IMG/VR virus record: IMGVR_UViG_2703718851_000003
Strand: one strand, 5' to 3'
From: a virus
Lineage: Duplodnaviria > Heunggongvirae > Uroviricota > Caudoviricetes
Length of the DNA: 32,999 nucleotides
The notes beneath the pieces are model-generated. The model saw only the letters and a program-made list of their open reading frames with translations. It searched no databases and had not been told where the DNA came from. The translations under genes and the position numbers were made by a program. Below, one piece after another: positions 23,682-29,379 of this stretch (position 1 is the stretch's first letter; each line of letters begins with the position of its first letter).

Positions 23682-24119
23682 ATGTCCAAAAACCTCGAAT
23701 TATTTAACCAGCAGACGGCTGAAATCTTTGCGGTGCTATGGGATAACTTTCCTGTACCACAAGTCATCACCTACAAAAAATTTAACGCCGCGTTACCTGA
23801 TGACTACTTTGACCAACTTAACTCACCGGAAATGAAAGCACTGAATCAGTTGCGTAGTGTGGTTGATGGCACATTCACTTTCCTAAGCGAAAACGGCTAT
23901 ATTCTGTACGGAACAGACCATCAGACCGGTTTTCATGATGTGCGCCTGACCGAGAAAGCACTCGCGGTGCTCAACAAAAAACCCGAAGCACTTGGCGGTA
24001 ATGAAACGATGGGAGATAAAATTATCAGTGCAGTAAAAGACGGGACTCCAGGTGTCATTGCTGGAGCAGTGACAAACCTGTTGACTCTTGGTGTTAATTT
24101 TGTGACGTCAGCTTCATAG
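23682..24119 (+). CDS. Hypothetical 145-aa protein with a C-terminal hydrophobic tail (accessory cargo)
   Basis: ATG start with AAGGG Shine-Dalgarno 8 nt upstream; no recognisable motif; C-terminus GTPGVIAGAVTNLLTLGVNFV is hydrophobic; convergent with the RT gene. Confidence 0.6.
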   Translation: MSKNLELFNQQTAEIFAVLWDNFPVPQVITYKKFNAALPDDYFDQLNSPEMKALNQLRSVVDGTFTFLSENGYILYGTDHQTGFHDVRLTEKALAVLNKKPEALGGNETMGDKIISAVKDGTPGVIAGAVTNLLTLGVNFVTSAS

Positions 24120-24243: not shown

Positions 24244-25194
24244 TTAATTTGCAGTATTAGCCTTTAAAGTAAGCACCTTAGATTTGTAACGTTGCTCAAT
24301 CACTCCCATTGAATGCAAACGACCAAAGAGCTTTTTGGCAATGATTGTTTCTCTCGCATTTTCGGCGTCTTTAATTATTTTCCAATAATCTATTTCCCTA
24401 GCCATCAAAAAATGCTGCTCATTCCTAACTTTTAATGCATTGCCTAATACAATAACTCCAGTTACCAACTTAGGCTTATCTCTGGCATATAGTTTTGTTT
24501 TCGTTGGGTGTATAACATGCCCATGCTTATTAACGATCTTACGAATTACAGCGCAGAACAATCGATTTACGTTACTACCTGAAAAAGTGAGATCATCAAC
24601 ATAAACAGTCATGTTAACTCGTAACTTTTGGCAAAGTTGATATATTTCACCAAACATTCTTGAATTTGCAAAATATGCCAACGGCATACTGATGCGACTA
24701 CCTGTTGGCAATCGGTCATGACAAGTACATATGTGGGACAAAACATCAGCAACATCAGATGACATTTTCATCACCGAAAAGAAAAAAGAAAATATCATCC
24801 CTCTTGTAGTTGATGGAAAAAAAGCTTTAATATCTGTTGTCATCATCTTTTCATTATTAAGATGAGCTTTAGCATTCGTCACATTAGAGCACTTCTTCTT
24901 CCCTGAGTGCAGATATTCTGGCAAAGCAATCCGCGATAACAAACTTGCAATTCGTGTATGTACAAGTTCTAGTTTTTCTAAAGGCTTTTGTATTTTTCGT
25001 GCTTTCCCTTTTTTAGAAAGCTGCTCAAAAACGGAATAGTTTCCTTCATCTTTTCTCAAAGAGTATAAATCATCAAGACTAACACAAAGCAAATTCGCCA
25101 GTTTTCTTTTACTTTTGAGTTTATAAAATGGCGAATCCATTATGTCATAAGATTTATTTTTAGTATTAACTTTAAGCTTTTTCCGTTTTTTCAT
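24244..25194 (-). CDS. Reverse transcriptase, short retron-like type (no C-terminal effector domain)
   Basis: 316-aa ORF with RT motifs in canonical order: NAKAHLNN, DIKAFFPS (motif A), LPTGSRISMPLAYF (motif B), YVDD (motif C), then KLVTGVIV (the VTG triplet typical of retron RTs). Pattern resembles the Ec86 retron RT as I recall it. Confidence 0.85.
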   Translation of the reverse strand: MKKRKKLKVNTKNKSYDIMDSPFYKLKSKRKLANLLCVSLDDLYSLRKDEGNYSVFEQLSKKGKARKIQKPLEKLELVHTRIASLLSRIALPEYLHSGKKKCSNVTNAKAHLNNEKMMTTDIKAFFPSTTRGMIFSFFFSVMKMSSDVADVLSHICTCHDRLPTGSRISMPLAYFANSRMFGEIYQLCQKLRVNMTVYVDDLTFSGSNVNRLFCAVIRKIVNKHGHVIHPTKTKLYARDKPKLVTGVIVLGNALKVRNEQHFLMAREIDYWKIIKDAENARETIIAKKLFGRLHSMGVIEQRYKSKVLTLKANTAN

Positions 25195-25492
25195 TTTTAT
25201 TACTTACCCACTCCAGAACATCCAGAACTTTACCGGCTAAATTTAAACGCAATCGCTTAGACAAACGGCCTTGCGTGCCTAATGATTCCGAAAAGAATAC
25301 TAAAGAGGATACTGGTATGTCGAAATGGGAGGCGTAACGCTCTAAGACTTCAATCGACGGTGACCAAACTCCGCTTTCAAGCGATACTATTTTGTCTTTT
25401 GGAATACCTAAAGATGAAGATAACTCAACTATTGATTCTTTATGGTATTGCCTTATTAAACGAAGGGCTTTATGTAACATAGGCAACTCCAT
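25172..25492 (-). CDS. Xre/Cro-type helix-turn-helix protein, overlapping the RT start (start may be the ATG at 25480, GGAG ribosome-binding site)
   Basis: 106-aa ORF; HTH segment ...ESIVELSSSLGIPKDKIVSLESG...; 23-nt overlap with the RT ORF suggests translational coupling. Confidence 0.75.
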   Translation of the reverse strand: MELPMLHKALRLIRQYHKESIVELSSSLGIPKDKIVSLESGVWSPSIEVLERYASHFDIPVSSLVFFSESLGTQGRLSKRLRLNLAGKVLDVLEWVSNKNEKTEKA

Positions 25493-25516
25493 GCTATTGA
25501 AACTAGGGAGGACGCA

Positions 25517-25672
25517 TTACTCATCACCCCCTTCGAAGTAGTCCAGTGCTCGAGTAACTAAATCAAACAGTCTAATACCCCATTTGATTAATTTCCAAGC
25601 GTAACCAGCCCACTTTTTCAGGTTTGACTTGTTCTGCGCCTGCTGTTCGTTGGTTAATTTATCATTCTTCAT
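25517..25672 (-). CDS. 51-aa small protein (MKNDKLTNEQQAQNKSNLKKWAGYAWKLIKWGIRLFDLVTRALDYFEGGDE), first ORF of the RT operon
   Basis: Internal ATG of track ORF 25517..25909 preceded by a strong AAGGAG Shine-Dalgarno at 6-nt spacing; the Shine-Dalgarno is embedded in the 3' arm of a hairpin. Confidence 0.5.
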   Translation of the reverse strand: MKNDKLTNEQQAQNKSNLKKWAGYAWKLIKWGIRLFDLVTRALDYFEGGDE

Positions 25673-25980
25673 GATTTGCTCCTTATGCCCATAGTGTGCA
25701 AACGGTATGTCTGCTCCAACACTATGGTTCGCCCTCATAAGGATGAGATTGAACAGCACTAGCCCCCTGCTCCACGAACCCTTGGTCGCCCAAAGGGTTC
25801 GAATACCCATACGCCATACCTCCTGATCCTGTGACTCCTGTCGCTGGCAGGGGCGTTGCGCGGGGTAAGTGTTAGAAAGCGTTAACTTTCCACGGGTAAA
25901 AATACCCAATTGATGGCGATATATCTCACTAACTAACCAATGTTTGCATCATAACAAGTAAACCGTTGTATTTGCTCCCC
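25673..25980 (-). ncRNA. Candidate structured non-coding RNA / leader of the RT operon (possible retron msr-msd-like or DRT-type template RNA)
   Basis: Series of stem-loops on the minus strand: GGGTA-TTTT-TACCC, GAAAG-TTAACG-CTTTC, an 8-bp stem at 25776..25800, and a composite 7+8-bp hairpin at 25681..25742. 12-bp inverted repeat GGTTTACTTGTT (25964..25953) / AACAAGTCAAACC (25633..25621). No protein-coding potential seen. Confidence 0.35.
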
Positions 25981-26008
25981 CTGTATATGATATTTTTTCA
26001 TATAAAAC

Positions 26009-26037
26009 AAATATATAGTAACTTAAAGGCATATCAA
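26009..26037 (-). promoter_or_regulatory. Candidate sigma70 promoter for the RT module, about 45 nt downstream of the A stop
   Basis: Minus strand TTGATA (-35, 26037..26032), 16-17 nt spacer, TATATT (-10) in an AT-rich block. Confidence 0.35.
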
Positions 26038-26080
26038 TGCGACATGGATATGCTTTCATTGCATTGAATTTTAAAGTGTT

Positions 26081-28375
26081 TTACATGAAAAATGACACTT
26101 CATCTTGAAATCCGAACCACTCATTAGTAACCATATACGTGAATTTTTTCCCGTCATAATTTACGGTTGCCCCACGCGCCAGCGCCTCAATCTCCCATCG
26201 CTGAGGCCTGATACCGTTCTGAGCAAGGTCAACGCGGATACGGGTAATTTGCATTCGTTCCGACCGGGTCAGTCTGGCCGATGGCGCTATTTCATGTGGT
26301 TTTAACGGGCTTCCGTTTCTTTGCTGGCGATTTGGTCTTCTCAGTCCGTGTTTTAATGCACCCCTGAGCGCCCTCACAACCTCCGGGTCATTCCATTCGA
26401 TAACACCGTCATCTACCAGATTAAGCACTGCTGCGGCGTGTTCAGAAGGTGTGGGAGCCGGTAACGAAGCATCACTGCTGGCAGGCTTTCCACAGTTATT
26501 GACAGGACTCCGAGGCGCGGCGATGCCGCTTTTTAAAGTCAAAGGCTCAACGACCGGCACTTTCGGCACAATGCGCCAGTCCGTGGTTCTGGTGATATGA
26601 ATATGACGCGCGCCGAGATGCGGCGCGTAAATGCCGACCACTCTCTCGACTTCTTCCTCGTACTCGTTAACGTCATCCGACGGGCTACGGGCGACCCTGA
26701 CAGTCTGACAATCGCGCGGAACATTTGCCCCACCCTGCGCGCTGATATACAACGCAAAATCACCACTGTCTGCGGCGGCGCGTGCAGCCTCGACGCGCTC
26801 GTCAAACTCATCAGCAATGCTGACGCCGCGAGGCAATTTGCGTAGTTCACGGTAAGCCCCCATTGTCGGCAGGCCAACCGTTTTAAATTGCGGGATGCGC
26901 CACGTTGACGCCCATGCGGTAACAGCCGCCGCTGTGTCTTTCAGCGGCCTGCCGGTATCGTTATCGAGCTGACCATCCAGTGCATAGCCGTCGATGTTTT
27001 TTGAGATGTATTTCGCGATATACCCCGCAGCACCGCCCCGGTTAAGGTGTTTCGCCTGAAAACGGTTTCGCGCGGCTCCTCTTTCGTCGCCATCCTCTTT
27101 GAGCGCGTAGCGACGCATGATTTCGATAATCTGGTTACGCTGGCGCGGATTACAAAAAAGCATCATATGCCAGTGCGGCGTTCCGTCGTGGTGTGGCTCG
27201 ACGACACGCAAACCGTAGACCTGTAAATCATTATCCTTGAATGCCGTGCGCATCAGGCTCCAGATACGGCAGAGATAACGCTGCGCATCCTTTGGATTAA
27301 ATGCCTCATCGTTCCAGCCGTGATTAAGCTGCACGGTTTTACTTTCGCCTTTTCCGACCTGACGTGTCGGGTGATACTTTGACGGCGCGGTCAGCGTGAT
27401 AAACATCCCCACATCACCCTCTGCGGCGGCGTAACGCTCAATACCGGCAATGGTGTTCATCAGCTCCATCCGGCGAATTTCAGGATTAGAAATACTGCCC
27501 ATCACCTTACTGATAAGGTCGATGCGCTCGCCGGTTTCCCTGTTTTCGAGGTCACACGATTTAAGAAATTCCAGATTTGCCTGGCGGCGCGCACGCACAT
27601 CACGAATGGCATGTTTACTGGCATAAGGAGAACGGTCTTTATTGACCTCCCCGACAGCTATCAGTAACGCCTCATGCCAGCGCATACGCTGGCCTTTAAG
27701 CTGATGAGTCCACCACTCATCGTTAAACAGGCGGGCAATGGCAGAATATGCCTGCCTCGTGGTCATCTGTCCTTTACGGTATTTTTTCCAGTAGAGAGGG
27801 GAAATATTGAAAGCACGTGCAGCGCCAGCAACATGACCATACAGGTGAGCCTGCGCCTCATCCGTAAACAGCGATTCTTTTTCGCCATGCGCATCCACCC
27901 AGGCATCGCTGAGTTCCTCATACATCATGAAAAGCTGCGATGAGATACGGGCGGCAAACTTTTTCAGCTCCTTGTCATTCATTCCCGGCAGGCGCGCATA
28001 GTGGTCACGCTCTGCCAGAAACAGCAACGACGCGTCGGTGTTCATTTCATGGCGCTGATTCACACGCTCAATGCGCGGCCATAAACGACGCTGAAAAGTG
28101 GATGTGAGGAAATAAAACCCGTGCACCGGGCTTTTATTGCGCCGGATGTAGTCATAGCGTGAAGTAAACAGCGAGCGCAAAAAGTAAGGCAGGCGGTTAA
28201 TCGTGGATAAAACACCTTGCACCTGACGCATCTCGTCACGTGTAAGGGGTCTTTCGCGCCCGACGGCCTCGCGTGGCGCGTTCCATGCATAAGCACCGGT
28301 AAACGCCTTACCGGTGCCTGCAGCAAATGCTGACGGAGGTACGCAGGTGTATTGCTCCTGGAAAGAATGACTCAT
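26081..28375 (-). CDS. A: Rolling-circle replication initiator A
   Basis: 764-aa ORF (P2 gpA is about 761 aa as I recall); last gene of the early operon; ATGA overlap with the upstream PP-loop gene. Confidence 0.9.
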   Translation of the reverse strand: MSHSFQEQYTCVPPSAFAAGTGKAFTGAYAWNAPREAVGRERPLTRDEMRQVQGVLSTINRLPYFLRSLFTSRYDYIRRNKSPVHGFYFLTSTFQRRLWPRIERVNQRHEMNTDASLLFLAERDHYARLPGMNDKELKKFAARISSQLFMMYEELSDAWVDAHGEKESLFTDEAQAHLYGHVAGAARAFNISPLYWKKYRKGQMTTRQAYSAIARLFNDEWWTHQLKGQRMRWHEALLIAVGEVNKDRSPYASKHAIRDVRARRQANLEFLKSCDLENRETGERIDLISKVMGSISNPEIRRMELMNTIAGIERYAAAEGDVGMFITLTAPSKYHPTRQVGKGESKTVQLNHGWNDEAFNPKDAQRYLCRIWSLMRTAFKDNDLQVYGLRVVEPHHDGTPHWHMMLFCNPRQRNQIIEIMRRYALKEDGDERGAARNRFQAKHLNRGGAAGYIAKYISKNIDGYALDGQLDNDTGRPLKDTAAAVTAWASTWRIPQFKTVGLPTMGAYRELRKLPRGVSIADEFDERVEAARAAADSGDFALYISAQGGANVPRDCQTVRVARSPSDDVNEYEEEVERVVGIYAPHLGARHIHITRTTDWRIVPKVPVVEPLTLKSGIAAPRSPVNNCGKPASSDASLPAPTPSEHAAAVLNLVDDGVIEWNDPEVVRALRGALKHGLRRPNRQQRNGSPLKPHEIAPSARLTRSERMQITRIRVDLAQNGIRPQRWEIEALARGATVNYDGKKFTYMVTNEWFGFQDEVSFFM

Positions 28376-29379
28376 TCACATACACCGGCATAGACACTAC
28401 TGCAAACTGACTTATCATTCACCGAAGCCAGCAAATCAAACTGTGCCCCGCCACGCGTGGTCATCGCCCAGTCACGATAAGACTCAATTCCGTAAGCATC
28501 GACAGTAATAATATCAATGCGGCGTTCCGCACGACGCGGGTCATGAGTTGACGGGAAGAAAGTAGAATTTCCGCGTCTGGAGCATGCGGCGACAAGTCGC
28601 TCCCATTCCGCAACACGCTTAACCTCTTCCGGCCAGCGACTAAAAATTTCAGCTAATTCAGACTTTCTGGCGTGGATGCAGGGCATACAACCGACACGAC
28701 TGCATCCCTGCTGGTATAACGGATTAGGTTTAATTCCATGACGTCTTGCAAATGCAAATACCTCCTCATGCGTCCAGTTCAGAATAGGACGGTATACATG
28801 GAGCCCGGGCGTATTGTCCGCATCCTCTTCCCAGGCAGGCAGACCCGCGCGCGCAGGAGACTCCTGAGCGCGAACCCCCTGCCAGCTAATTACCTCATCA
28901 AACTCATTAAGCGCAGGTAACACGACCTGAGTACGTACTGGCTCATGTTTAAGGTCAAAAGTGCAAAATCTGGCTTTAGTGGAAGGAAATCGCCCTTTCC
29001 ACATGCACAAATCAAGAAATGGGATACCAGTAGGCTTGAGAATTTCCAGCGCACAATTGATGCGCTCTGCCGCTTCCCCCGGAGACATTCCGCACTCTTC
29101 AACCAAAGAAACAGGCCATTTCTCAGCAATAAACTTGCGCTTACCTTCAATCTGTCGGGAGAAGTCAGCTTTAACCCGTTTAACCGGCCCGAGTCGGTTC
29201 TCCAGATAATCGAGATACTCCATTGTCTGCGGATGCTCATGCCCGGTGTCTGCAAAAACCGGCAAAAAATGCACACCGCTTTCAATACCAACAAGCCATT
29301 GAGCAAGGCTATCCTTTCCGCCAGAAACAGAAATAATATTGATAGAGCTTTCAGCTCGGCAGCGGGTATCAACTATCAT
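28372..29379 (-). CDS. PAPS-reductase / PP-loop ATP-pyrophosphatase family protein (DndC-like fold), function in phage unknown
   Basis: 335-aa ORF; N-terminal ISVSGGKDS (SGGxDS PP-loop signature); C-terminal cysteine cluster CSRVGCMPC; translationally coupled to A. Confidence 0.8.
   Translation of the reverse strand: MIVDTRCRAESSINIISVSGGKDSLAQWLVGIESGVHFLPVFADTGHEHPQTMEYLDYLENRLGPVKRVKADFSRQIEGKRKFIAEKWPVSLVEECGMSPGEAAERINCALEILKPTGIPFLDLCMWKGRFPSTKARFCTFDLKHEPVRTQVVLPALNEFDEVISWQGVRAQESPARAGLPAWEEDADNTPGLHVYRPILNWTHEEVFAFARRHGIKPNPLYQQGCSRVGCMPCIHARKSELAEIFSRWPEEVKRVAEWERLVAACSRRGNSTFFPSTHDPRRAERRIDIITVDAYGIESYRDWAMTTRGGAQFDLLASVNDKSVCSSVYAGVCE

Follow-up and report, generated by a model that had tools for sequence, protein, structure and literature searches.

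The closest described relatives of the element analyzed here are Type VI retrons. Retron-Vpa2 produces a hybrid RNA (hyRNA) of ~470 nt, a single molecule that unites the msr-msd with the sequence encoding a toxic small protein (SP) (Zhang et al., 10.1101/2025.10.22.683967). The 3′ end of this transcript pairs back to the msr-msd arm, and a conserved pair of 7-nt direct repeats is split between an msd loop and the loop of a riboregulator. Its multicopy single-stranded DNA (msDNA), which measures 86 nt in full and 63 nt without the 5′ hairpin, appears only on triggering and is required for translation of the SP (10.1101/2025.10.22.683967). Retron-Eco12, a related Type VI retron of E. coli, defends against lambda-vir and has no detectable msDNA at baseline (10.1101/2025.10.22.683967). 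Retron-Sen3 belongs to the cl2075 lineage and is armed constitutively, its control being post-translational; it makes constitutive single-stranded DNA (ssDNA) of 112 and 145 nt, and its 79-aa SP has an N-terminal extension (Garcia-Rodriguez et al., 10.64898/2026.04.27.721009). Here we analyze the structured region upstream of the reverse transcriptase (RT) operon in a 32,999-nt stretch of Caudoviricetes DNA (IMG/VR record IMGVR_UViG_2703718851_000003; the whole stretch is called the window). This region is very probably the non-coding 5′ part of a Type VI retron hyRNA, carried by a P2-like prophage in the slot between its gpA and portal genes.

On the minus strand, a gpA-type endonuclease gene is followed by a ~400-nt intergenic stretch, a 51-aa open reading frame (ORF), a helix-turn-helix (HTH) gene and an overlapping RT gene. 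The RT belongs to the Type VI clade and has an intact YxDD motif, a Cro/C1-type HTH gene adjoins it, and a small ORF lies upstream; on sequence grounds, the operon is a Type VI retron (SP, HTH, RT; Mestre 2020 classification). All 25 PADLOC matches of the RT among those listed were to retron RT families, with RT_VI on top and RT_III-A second (4.1e-105 vs. 5e-45), and the catalytic residues Y198, V199, D200 and D201 were invariant in an alignment whose first row is an RT identical to that of the window. By tblastn, the window RT is 100% identical to that of a near-identical E. coli locus (L007). The L007 protein, annotated as WP_000746343.1, stands in the published Type VI tree under the leaf label 'Large_', in the same lineage as Retron-Vpa2, and the system has thus already been catalogued. 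Because the RNA family was also described in 2025-26, the novelty of the locus is low; only the crossing of helices by helix c and a 5′ box complementary to the repeats (both described below) might add something new. Retron-Eco12 is likewise a Type VI retron from E. coli that is related to Vpa2, and the system may be Retron-Eco12 or a close allele; neither the papers nor their supplements give an Eco12 sequence or accession. No Rfam family reached its gathering score anywhere in the window, and a permissive search (E ≤ 10) of positions 25300-26200 returned two matches only, both at chance level.

A first-pass annotation of the window, made by a model from the letters alone, had suggested that the leader of the 51-aa ORF could be a retron template RNA or a riboregulatory leader hiding the ribosome-binding site (RBS) of that ORF. 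Homology to the characterized hyRNA of Retron-Vpa2 bears out both suggestions. In a V. parahaemolyticus locus (L089), a 55-aa protein is identical to the Vpa2 SP as rebuilt from the published table, and models built solely from the E. coli clade matched this locus directly upstream of the SP gene (R1 at 1238-1403, E = 2.8e-12; R2 at 1374-1538, E ~1e-17). Read side by side, the Vpa2 elements were the same as those of the window and stood in the same order. Both systems have an SP-HTH-RT operon with an RT of the 'Large' lineage, msr-like hairpins followed by a long and a short hairpin as template, an RBS and a start codon held in stem-loops, one 7-nt repeat each in an msd loop and the riboregulator loop, and a 3′ segment that pairs directly after the msd. 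The hallmarks of a hyRNA are present in the window: the three-arm fold, the sequestered RBS and start codon, the 3′ pair-back, the repeats and the homology to Vpa2. In position, the long hairpin of the window is equivalent to the long stem-loop that the Vpa2 msDNA spans, and because the 86-nt Vpa2 msDNA fits the long hairpin plus the stem-loop (SL) that follows it (SL-c), we predict a 91-nt msd at 25865-25775. The corresponding msDNA is predicted to fold as two DNA hairpins (z -3.55), the long hairpin and a 27-nt 5′ hairpin whose loop carries the complement of the first direct repeat (DR1).

The two systems also differ. The RTs are ~54% identical, and the SPs, of 51 aa here and 55 aa in Vpa2, show weak pairwise similarity (E 0.008), their C-termini reading YFEGGDE and LFDGGDT, respectively. 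The repeats are GGGCGA(C/A) here and GGACGAA in Vpa2, and the arms of the long-range helix X:Y are UGGAGCAGGGGG/CUCCCUAGUUUCA here and UCGAGACGGGGGC/CUCCCCCUAGUUUCGA in Vpa2. The predicted msd is 91 nt long, vs. 86 nt for Vpa2. Finally, the window is a P2-like prophage known from its sequence alone, whereas Vpa2 resides in a chromosomal island.

Comparative analyses were performed with five further E. coli alleles (L001-L006), 80 loci of other species gathered by RT similarity, and V. parahaemolyticus loci. Two overlapping covariance models, one of the 5′ domain (built from eight close sequences) and one of the riboregulator region, were used in place of one full-length model. Among eight close relatives, the leader was more conserved than the SP coding sequence, and its substitutions were compensatory within stems. 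RNAalifold produced a consensus three-arm fold of 123 pairs that includes SL-a, SL-b, the long hairpin, SL-c, the X:Y helix, helix 2, the RBS and start-codon hairpins, and an arm formed by the SP coding sequence. The 5′-domain model found one match per locus in 33 loci, all on the coding strand and, in loci where the SP was mapped, directly upstream of it. In alignments fitted to the models, 94.0% of cells were paired in the 33 loci of the 5′ domain, vs. 37-47% when the partners were slid, and 32 of 35 pairs had changed on both sides; the corresponding values for the riboregulator model in 27 loci were 95.7%, 35-46% and 44 of 45. Because the alignments were fitted to the model, each sequence was also folded alone; as an independent check, single-sequence minimum free energy (MFE) folds regained 71% of the consensus pairs overall. 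The check across homologous loci that the first-pass annotation had called for came out in favor of the stems, which are conserved and carry many compensatory changes in ~30 loci of other species.

The leader is as highly structured as it had appeared to the eye, with an MFE of -113 kcal/mol compared to -90.4 ± 4.5 for dinucleotide shuffles (z -5.06); leader and small ORF together gave z -5.9. The local stems that had been read as GGGTA/TACCC and GAAAG/CTTTC exist (SL-a and SL-b; Table 1). A third stem, SL-c, is also present and is 9 bp long (25801-25793 with 25783-25775) rather than the 8 bp given initially. The composite hairpin was likewise found, with stems of 8 bp (outer) and 9 bp (inner) in place of 7 and 8. 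Its outer stem, UCCUUAUG/CAUAAGGA, joins 25743-25736 to 25687-25680, and its inner stem joins 25727-25719 to 25697-25689, with the second direct repeat (DR2) housed in the internal loop. The outer 3′ arm, CAUAAGGA, overlaps the Shine-Dalgarno sequence AAGGAG (25684-25679), which lies 6 nt ahead of the SP start codon (ATG 25672), in agreement with the proposal that the RBS of the 51-aa ORF is sequestered. The start codon itself lies inside a small hairpin, and the SP coding sequence folds as the third arm of the RNA. The long hairpin is variable in its interior and has a 17-nt insertion in one close relative (L008).

The leader had also been described as lacking coding potential, and we agree. 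Translation from an upstream ATG in the same frame (25810) would lengthen the small ORF to 97 aa, and translation from a TTG at 25909 would lengthen it to 130 aa. Neither extension is conserved, and both were rejected as real proteins; the 97-aa form is confined to the close E. coli clade and is absent from L006, L008 and L020, and the substitutions that the leader carries compensate one another within base pairs. The upstream extension is a by-product of conserved RNA sequence and not a conserved protein.

One claim of the first-pass annotation that did not survive was that of a self-contained leader of ~300 nt, as conserved structure runs on through the small ORF to 25498, for ~447 nt. Three long-range helices mark this larger structure. 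The X:Y helix pairs an a2-like segment directly after the predicted msd with a segment directly 3′ of the SP stop codon, and its cognate duplexes averaged -14.2 kcal/mol compared to -11.0 for non-cognate combinations (permutation p < 1e-4; n = 17 non-redundant loci). Compensated versions include UCGAGAC/GUUUCGA in Xenorhabdus and GGGAA/UUUCCC in a Vibrio. The Y arm is likely the 3′ boundary of the hybrid RNA structure. Helix 2 ties the leader to codons 9-11 of the SP gene; 98.1% of its cells were paired and all eight pairs had changed on both sides. Helix c, which closes the msr-msd domain, covaries widely (GGGAU/AUCCC, GAGAG/CUCUC, GGAUG/CAUCC), with cognate duplexes at -7.3 and non-cognate ones at -4.7 kcal/mol (p < 5e-5). 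Two helices of the RNAalifold consensus were discarded. One, GUGA/UCGC (25929-25926 with 25919-25916), was only 73.8% paired, and helix c and the 5′ box explain these positions better. The other, an outermost 4-bp helix (columns 104-107 with 603-606 of alignment A2), was weak and lies upstream of the likely transcription start. Structure, covariation, homology to the Vpa2 hyRNA, repeats and long-range helices were all found at this locus.

Comparison of the loci placed the promoter close to the 5′ domain. The best sigma-70 match ended 2-9 nt before the first position of the 5′-domain model in ~25 of the 33 loci, and in distant relatives it was often the near-consensus TTGACA-17-TAnnnT. In the window, the extended -10 TGtTATGAT sits at this position, from which we predict a transcription start near 25941; its TAnnAT is invariant in the eight close relatives. 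With the Y arm ending at 25498, the predicted product is one minus-strand RNA of ~447 nt that extends from ~25941 to ~25495. A promoter had previously been placed farther upstream, at 26037-26010. The sequence is there, and matches the consensus at 10 of 12 positions, but such sites were no more common in the region than in shuffled sequence (4 found vs. 6.3 expected), and this one is absent from a 96%-identical relative and is not conserved in alignment A2.

Taken in order, the predicted hyRNA would consist of a 5′ domain with two short msr-like hairpins and a template of ~91 nt (25865-25775), followed by the riboregulator hairpin that buries the Shine-Dalgarno sequence, the start-codon hairpin, the arm containing the 51-aa toxin ORF, and the 3′ segment that pairs back. 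By homology with Retron-Vpa2, the RT, the HTH protein and the hyRNA would form one complex in the uninfected cell, with reverse transcription held low and the SP untranslated. Phage recombination or anti-RecBCD functions would then allow msDNA to build up, and its 5′ hairpin, bearing the complement of the 7-nt repeat, would pair with DR2 in the riboregulator and free the RBS. Toxic SP would be made and the infection aborted. For the window locus, we infer the transcript ends, the msDNA, the toxicity of the SP and the trigger.

The repeats on which this model depends are DR1 (GGGCGAC, 25791-25785), in the loop of SL-c, and DR2 (GGGCGAA, 25734-25728), in the internal loop of the RBS hairpin. They are conserved as a pair and change together, reading GGACGAA twice in Vpa2 and UGGUGAU twice in L019 and L030. 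Upstream of the msr-like hairpins, we found a box (anti-DR box) that is complementary to both repeats and appears, with modest support, to co-vary with them across lineages that include Vpa2. Box and repeat read UCGCC and GGGCGA in the window, UCGUC and GGACGAA in Vpa2, AUCACCA and UGGUGAU in L019 and L030, and UCUCAC and GUGAGA in L045 and L047, with G·U intermediates in L006, L020 and L026. In a fixed-column count, for which the alignment was not fitted to this pairing, 81% of the box:DR cells were paired, compared to 8-59% with slid partners; the covariation score was 0.135 vs. 0.077 and was reached by 1 of 500 shuffles, and the test of cognate vs. non-cognate boxes gave p = 0.003. A duplex test of the box against DR2 included one locus with an empty segment, which made its figure unreliable, and it was not used. 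The box has the same sense as the msDNA segment copied from DR1 and can therefore pair with either repeat.

We tentatively consider that the box could be a third copy of the repeat logic, forming an intramolecular pseudoknot or a three-way switch, although we regard this as somewhat less probable than its alternatives taken together. Another possibility is that it mimics the msDNA as an RNA. In the resting state, the RNA would have its box paired either with DR1, so that the beginning of the template is masked, or with DR2, so that the riboregulator is locked; these contacts would be redistributed once reverse transcription takes place or msDNA binds, and the RBS would open. The texts of 10.1101/2025.10.22.683967 and 10.64898/2026.04.27.721009, figures not covered, make no mention of such a box or of a pseudoknot or kissing contact. 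The box would offer a concrete handle on how ssDNA unlocks translation, a step left open by the original authors.

Several observations weigh against assigning the region to a hyRNA that works as Vpa2 does. The covariation counts come from model-fitted alignments and are biased towards structure. Helix c crosses both X:Y and helix 2, and therefore implies either a pseudoknot at the central node or a switch between conformers. No conserved branching G was found across the loci after the Y arm, the X arm or the 5′ arm of helix c. The predicted contact between msDNA and DR2 is a DNA:RNA duplex of only ~6 bp here. Finally, the second characterized Type VI retron, Sen3, makes its ssDNA and SP constitutively; since it is controlled post-translationally, the Vpa2 mechanism cannot be assumed for every Type VI member.

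This last point leads to the alternative that survives best, in which the same Type VI RNA would work like that of Sen3: ssDNA and SP would be constitutive, the HTH protein would neutralize the toxin post-translationally, and inhibition of RecBCD would be the trigger. The leader would then serve as template and scaffold, and sequestration of the RBS would merely tune expression. The resemblance to Sen3 is considerable, as both systems have an SP-HTH-RT operon, a structured non-coding RNA that lies no more than ~280 nt from the SP start, an RBS hidden in a (basal) stem, a candidate msd in the form of a long variable hairpin, an inverted repeat that brackets the SP gene and has one arm directly after the SP stop codon, and an SP coding sequence under selection for RNA structure. 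However, the window RT falls in the 'Large' lineage with Vpa2 and not in the cl2075 sub-lineage, its SP is Vpa2-like and has 51 rather than 79 aa, and it has the two co-varying 7-nt repeats that are invoked for msDNA-dependent derepression; direct repeats are unmentioned for Sen3. Retron-Eco12, described as related to Vpa2, also speaks against constitutive ssDNA. Given this agreement with Vpa2 in lineage, SP type and direct repeats, arming of the Sen3 type is the less likely, and we consider it improbable.

Far less probable is a canonical msr-msd of the kind first drawn for this region, with a1/a2 arms at 25964-25953 and 25633-25621 and a promoter at 26037-26010. The 12-bp bulged inverted repeat does exist (-13.1 kcal/mol), and the close clade shows one compensatory-looking change (ACUUGCU/AGCAAGU in L008), but its role as a1/a2 is at chance level and is not conserved. 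When 45-nt upstream segments were shuffled, 28% paired with the downstream RNA as well as the best duplex of the real segment, which is itself not the proposed pair. In 23 loci, cognate 5′ and SP segments averaged -12.3 kcal/mol and mismatched ones -11.9 (p = 0.25), and a cross-locus test of the 45-nt upstream segment against the region from the SP stop codon to the HTH gene gave no pairing signal (p = 0.89). The repeat has an uncompensated mismatch in L004 and L005 and is absent from L006 and L020. Moreover, its 5′ arm overlaps the conserved extended -10 at 25956-25948 and would therefore be promoter DNA, and the promoter at 26037 that would go with it is not conserved.

With the hyRNA reading thus preferred, the locus still resembles a canonical retron such as Retron-Eco1 (Ec86) in that short msr hairpins and then a long msd hairpin occur in a non-coding RNA upstream of the RT, with inverted repeats beside the template. 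It differs in that the RNA runs on into the effector ORF, the helix abutting the template draws one strand from the 3′ end of the complete transcript, a conserved branching G was not found, and the msDNA is expected to activate the toxin instead of neutralizing it. In type I toxin-antitoxin mRNA leaders (e.g., hok and tisB), a small toxic peptide is also kept untranslated by an RBS that is buried in mRNA structure. These leaders work alike, but the window is not a member of that group, as its proposed activator is reverse-transcribed ssDNA, whereas type I leaders are activated by mRNA processing or by loss of an antisense RNA. The remaining alternative, a purely riboregulatory 5′ untranslated region of a small toxin gene without templating, or else a template of the defense-associated RT (DRT; UG/Abi RT) type, agrees with the RBS and start codon being held in covarying hairpins, yet it is hardly credible given that the RT is a retron Type VI RT with only retron RT families among its listed PADLOC matches, which leaves the DRT option unsupported, and that conservation reaches far upstream of the riboregulator, into a 5′ domain (SL-a, SL-b, the long hairpin and SL-c) that is homologous to the reverse-transcribed part of the Vpa2 RNA.

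The analysis shows that a recently described and unusual class of RNA, in which one transcript serves as retron template, as riboswitch-like lock on translation and as toxin mRNA, can be recovered when raw sequence is read with care. It also yields a coordinate-level map of promoter, template, repeats and three covarying long-range helices (Table 1), in which the positions of the priming-like helix and the promoter are corrected.

Table 1. Positions and supporting details of features of the retron locus and its upstream neighbor in the window.
Feature	Position	Strand	Details
P2 gpA-type replication endonuclease	26081-28375	-	Pfam Phage_GPA 7e-124
Promoter-like site TTGATA-16-TATATT of the first-pass annotation	26010-26037	-	10/12 matches; lineage-specific, probably not a conserved promoter
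Extended -10 TGtTATGAT (-10 TATGAT 25953-25948)	25948-25956	-	placed by comparison (putative)
Helix c, 5′ arm UGAGAU	25923-25928	-	6 bp with AUCUCA; closes msr-msd domain
5′ anti-DR box AUCGCCA	25914-25920	-	complementary to both direct repeats
SL-a hairpin UGGGUA/UACCCG, msr-like	25893-25908	-	98.4% of cells paired; 5/6 pairs changed on both sides
SL-b hairpin GGAAAG/CUUUCU, msr-like	25874-25891	-	99.0% paired; 4/6 pairs changed on both sides
Long hairpin with variable tip, main part of predicted msd	25806-25865	-	base kept, interior variable
SL-c hairpin CGAACCCUU[UGGGCGACC]AAGGGUUCG, loop with DR1	25775-25801	-	99-99.6% paired; 9/9 pairs changed on both sides
X arm UGGAGCAGGGGG, a2-like, conserved long-range helix	25763-25774	-	pairs with 25510-25498
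Helix 2, 5′ arm UGCUGUUC	25751-25758	-	pairs with GAACAGCA at 25648-25641
Helix c, 3′ arm AUCUCA	25744-25749	-	pairs with UGAGAU 25928-25923
RBS-sequestering composite hairpin (riboregulator)	25680-25743	-	helices 3-7, 93-100% paired, all changed on both sides
SP ORF, 51 aa, predicted toxic effector	25517-25672	-	position kept in 42 loci
Helix 2, 3′ arm GAACAGCA	25641-25648	-	inside SP coding sequence, codons 9-11 (Glu9-Gln10-Gln11)
Y arm CUCCCUAGUUUCA, directly 3′ of SP stop codon	25498-25510	-	pairs with 25774-25763
HTH accessory protein	25172-25492	-	106 aa from ATG 25492; PADLOC HTH_VI 7.7e-31
Retron Type VI RT, 316 aa, YVDD	24244-25194	-	PADLOC RT_VI 4.1e-105; Pfam RVT_1

Among loci with an RT at least 40% identical to that of the window, an SP-like ORF of 44-56 aa was found directly upstream of the HTH gene in 42. 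These ORFs share the character of the 51-aa ORF, encoding a polar N-terminus, a basic stretch, a hydrophobic helix and an acidic tail. The HTH protein has weak Pfam matches to HTH_3, HTH_19 and HTH_31, and its ORF shares 23 nt with the RT ORF. An alternative start of the HTH gene, ATG 25480, is preceded by GGAG (25489-25486) and would give a protein of 102 aa, the length seen in RefSeq relatives.

The window is a P2-like prophage in which an integrase, replication genes, portal, terminase, scaffold and capsid are present, and the RT operon is held in a variable slot between gpA and the portal gene. Of 5,426 complete E. coli genomes, ~100 carry the locus, and O157:H7 strains account for many of these; the copy in the O157:H7 strains ATCC 43890 and FRIK944 is 99.6% identical to that of the window. 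It was always chromosomal and occurred in several alleles, at least five among the complete E. coli genomes, that are 74-100% identical. Peduovirus P22H1 and Klebsiella phage ST147-VIM1phi7.1 have the locus at 84-85% identity. A diverged allele in E. coli C5 (NZ_CP010122.1; L006 2486-4190), with an RT 65% identical and a leader ~75% identical to those of the window, is not part of a P2-like prophage but lies in the chromosome near yeiP; the published 'Large' lineage includes its RT (WP_001461245.1) as well.

Directly after the gpA stop codon, a 14-bp hairpin that is 86% complementary and has a 3-nt loop was found at 26026-26056, and its 3′ arm includes the TTGATA that had been read as a -35 hexamer. 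A terminator scan did not call this hairpin, which may be a terminator or processing hairpin of gpA. Upstream of gpA and overlapping it, a 335-aa ORF (28372-29379, minus strand) matched phage families resembling 3′-phosphoadenosine-5′-phosphosulfate (PAPS) reductase (phrog_424, 2e-84) and may be another accessory or defense-related prophage gene. On the other side of the retron, the adjacent gene (23682-24119, plus strand) encodes a 145-aa protein of unknown function (phrog_2266). In other alleles, the retron is followed by a gene for an FRG-domain protein (L002 and L003; L002 3474-4838) or for a hypothetical protein of 266 aa (L004 and L005; L004 3440-4240), and the cargo of the prophage slot is thus mosaic between alleles.

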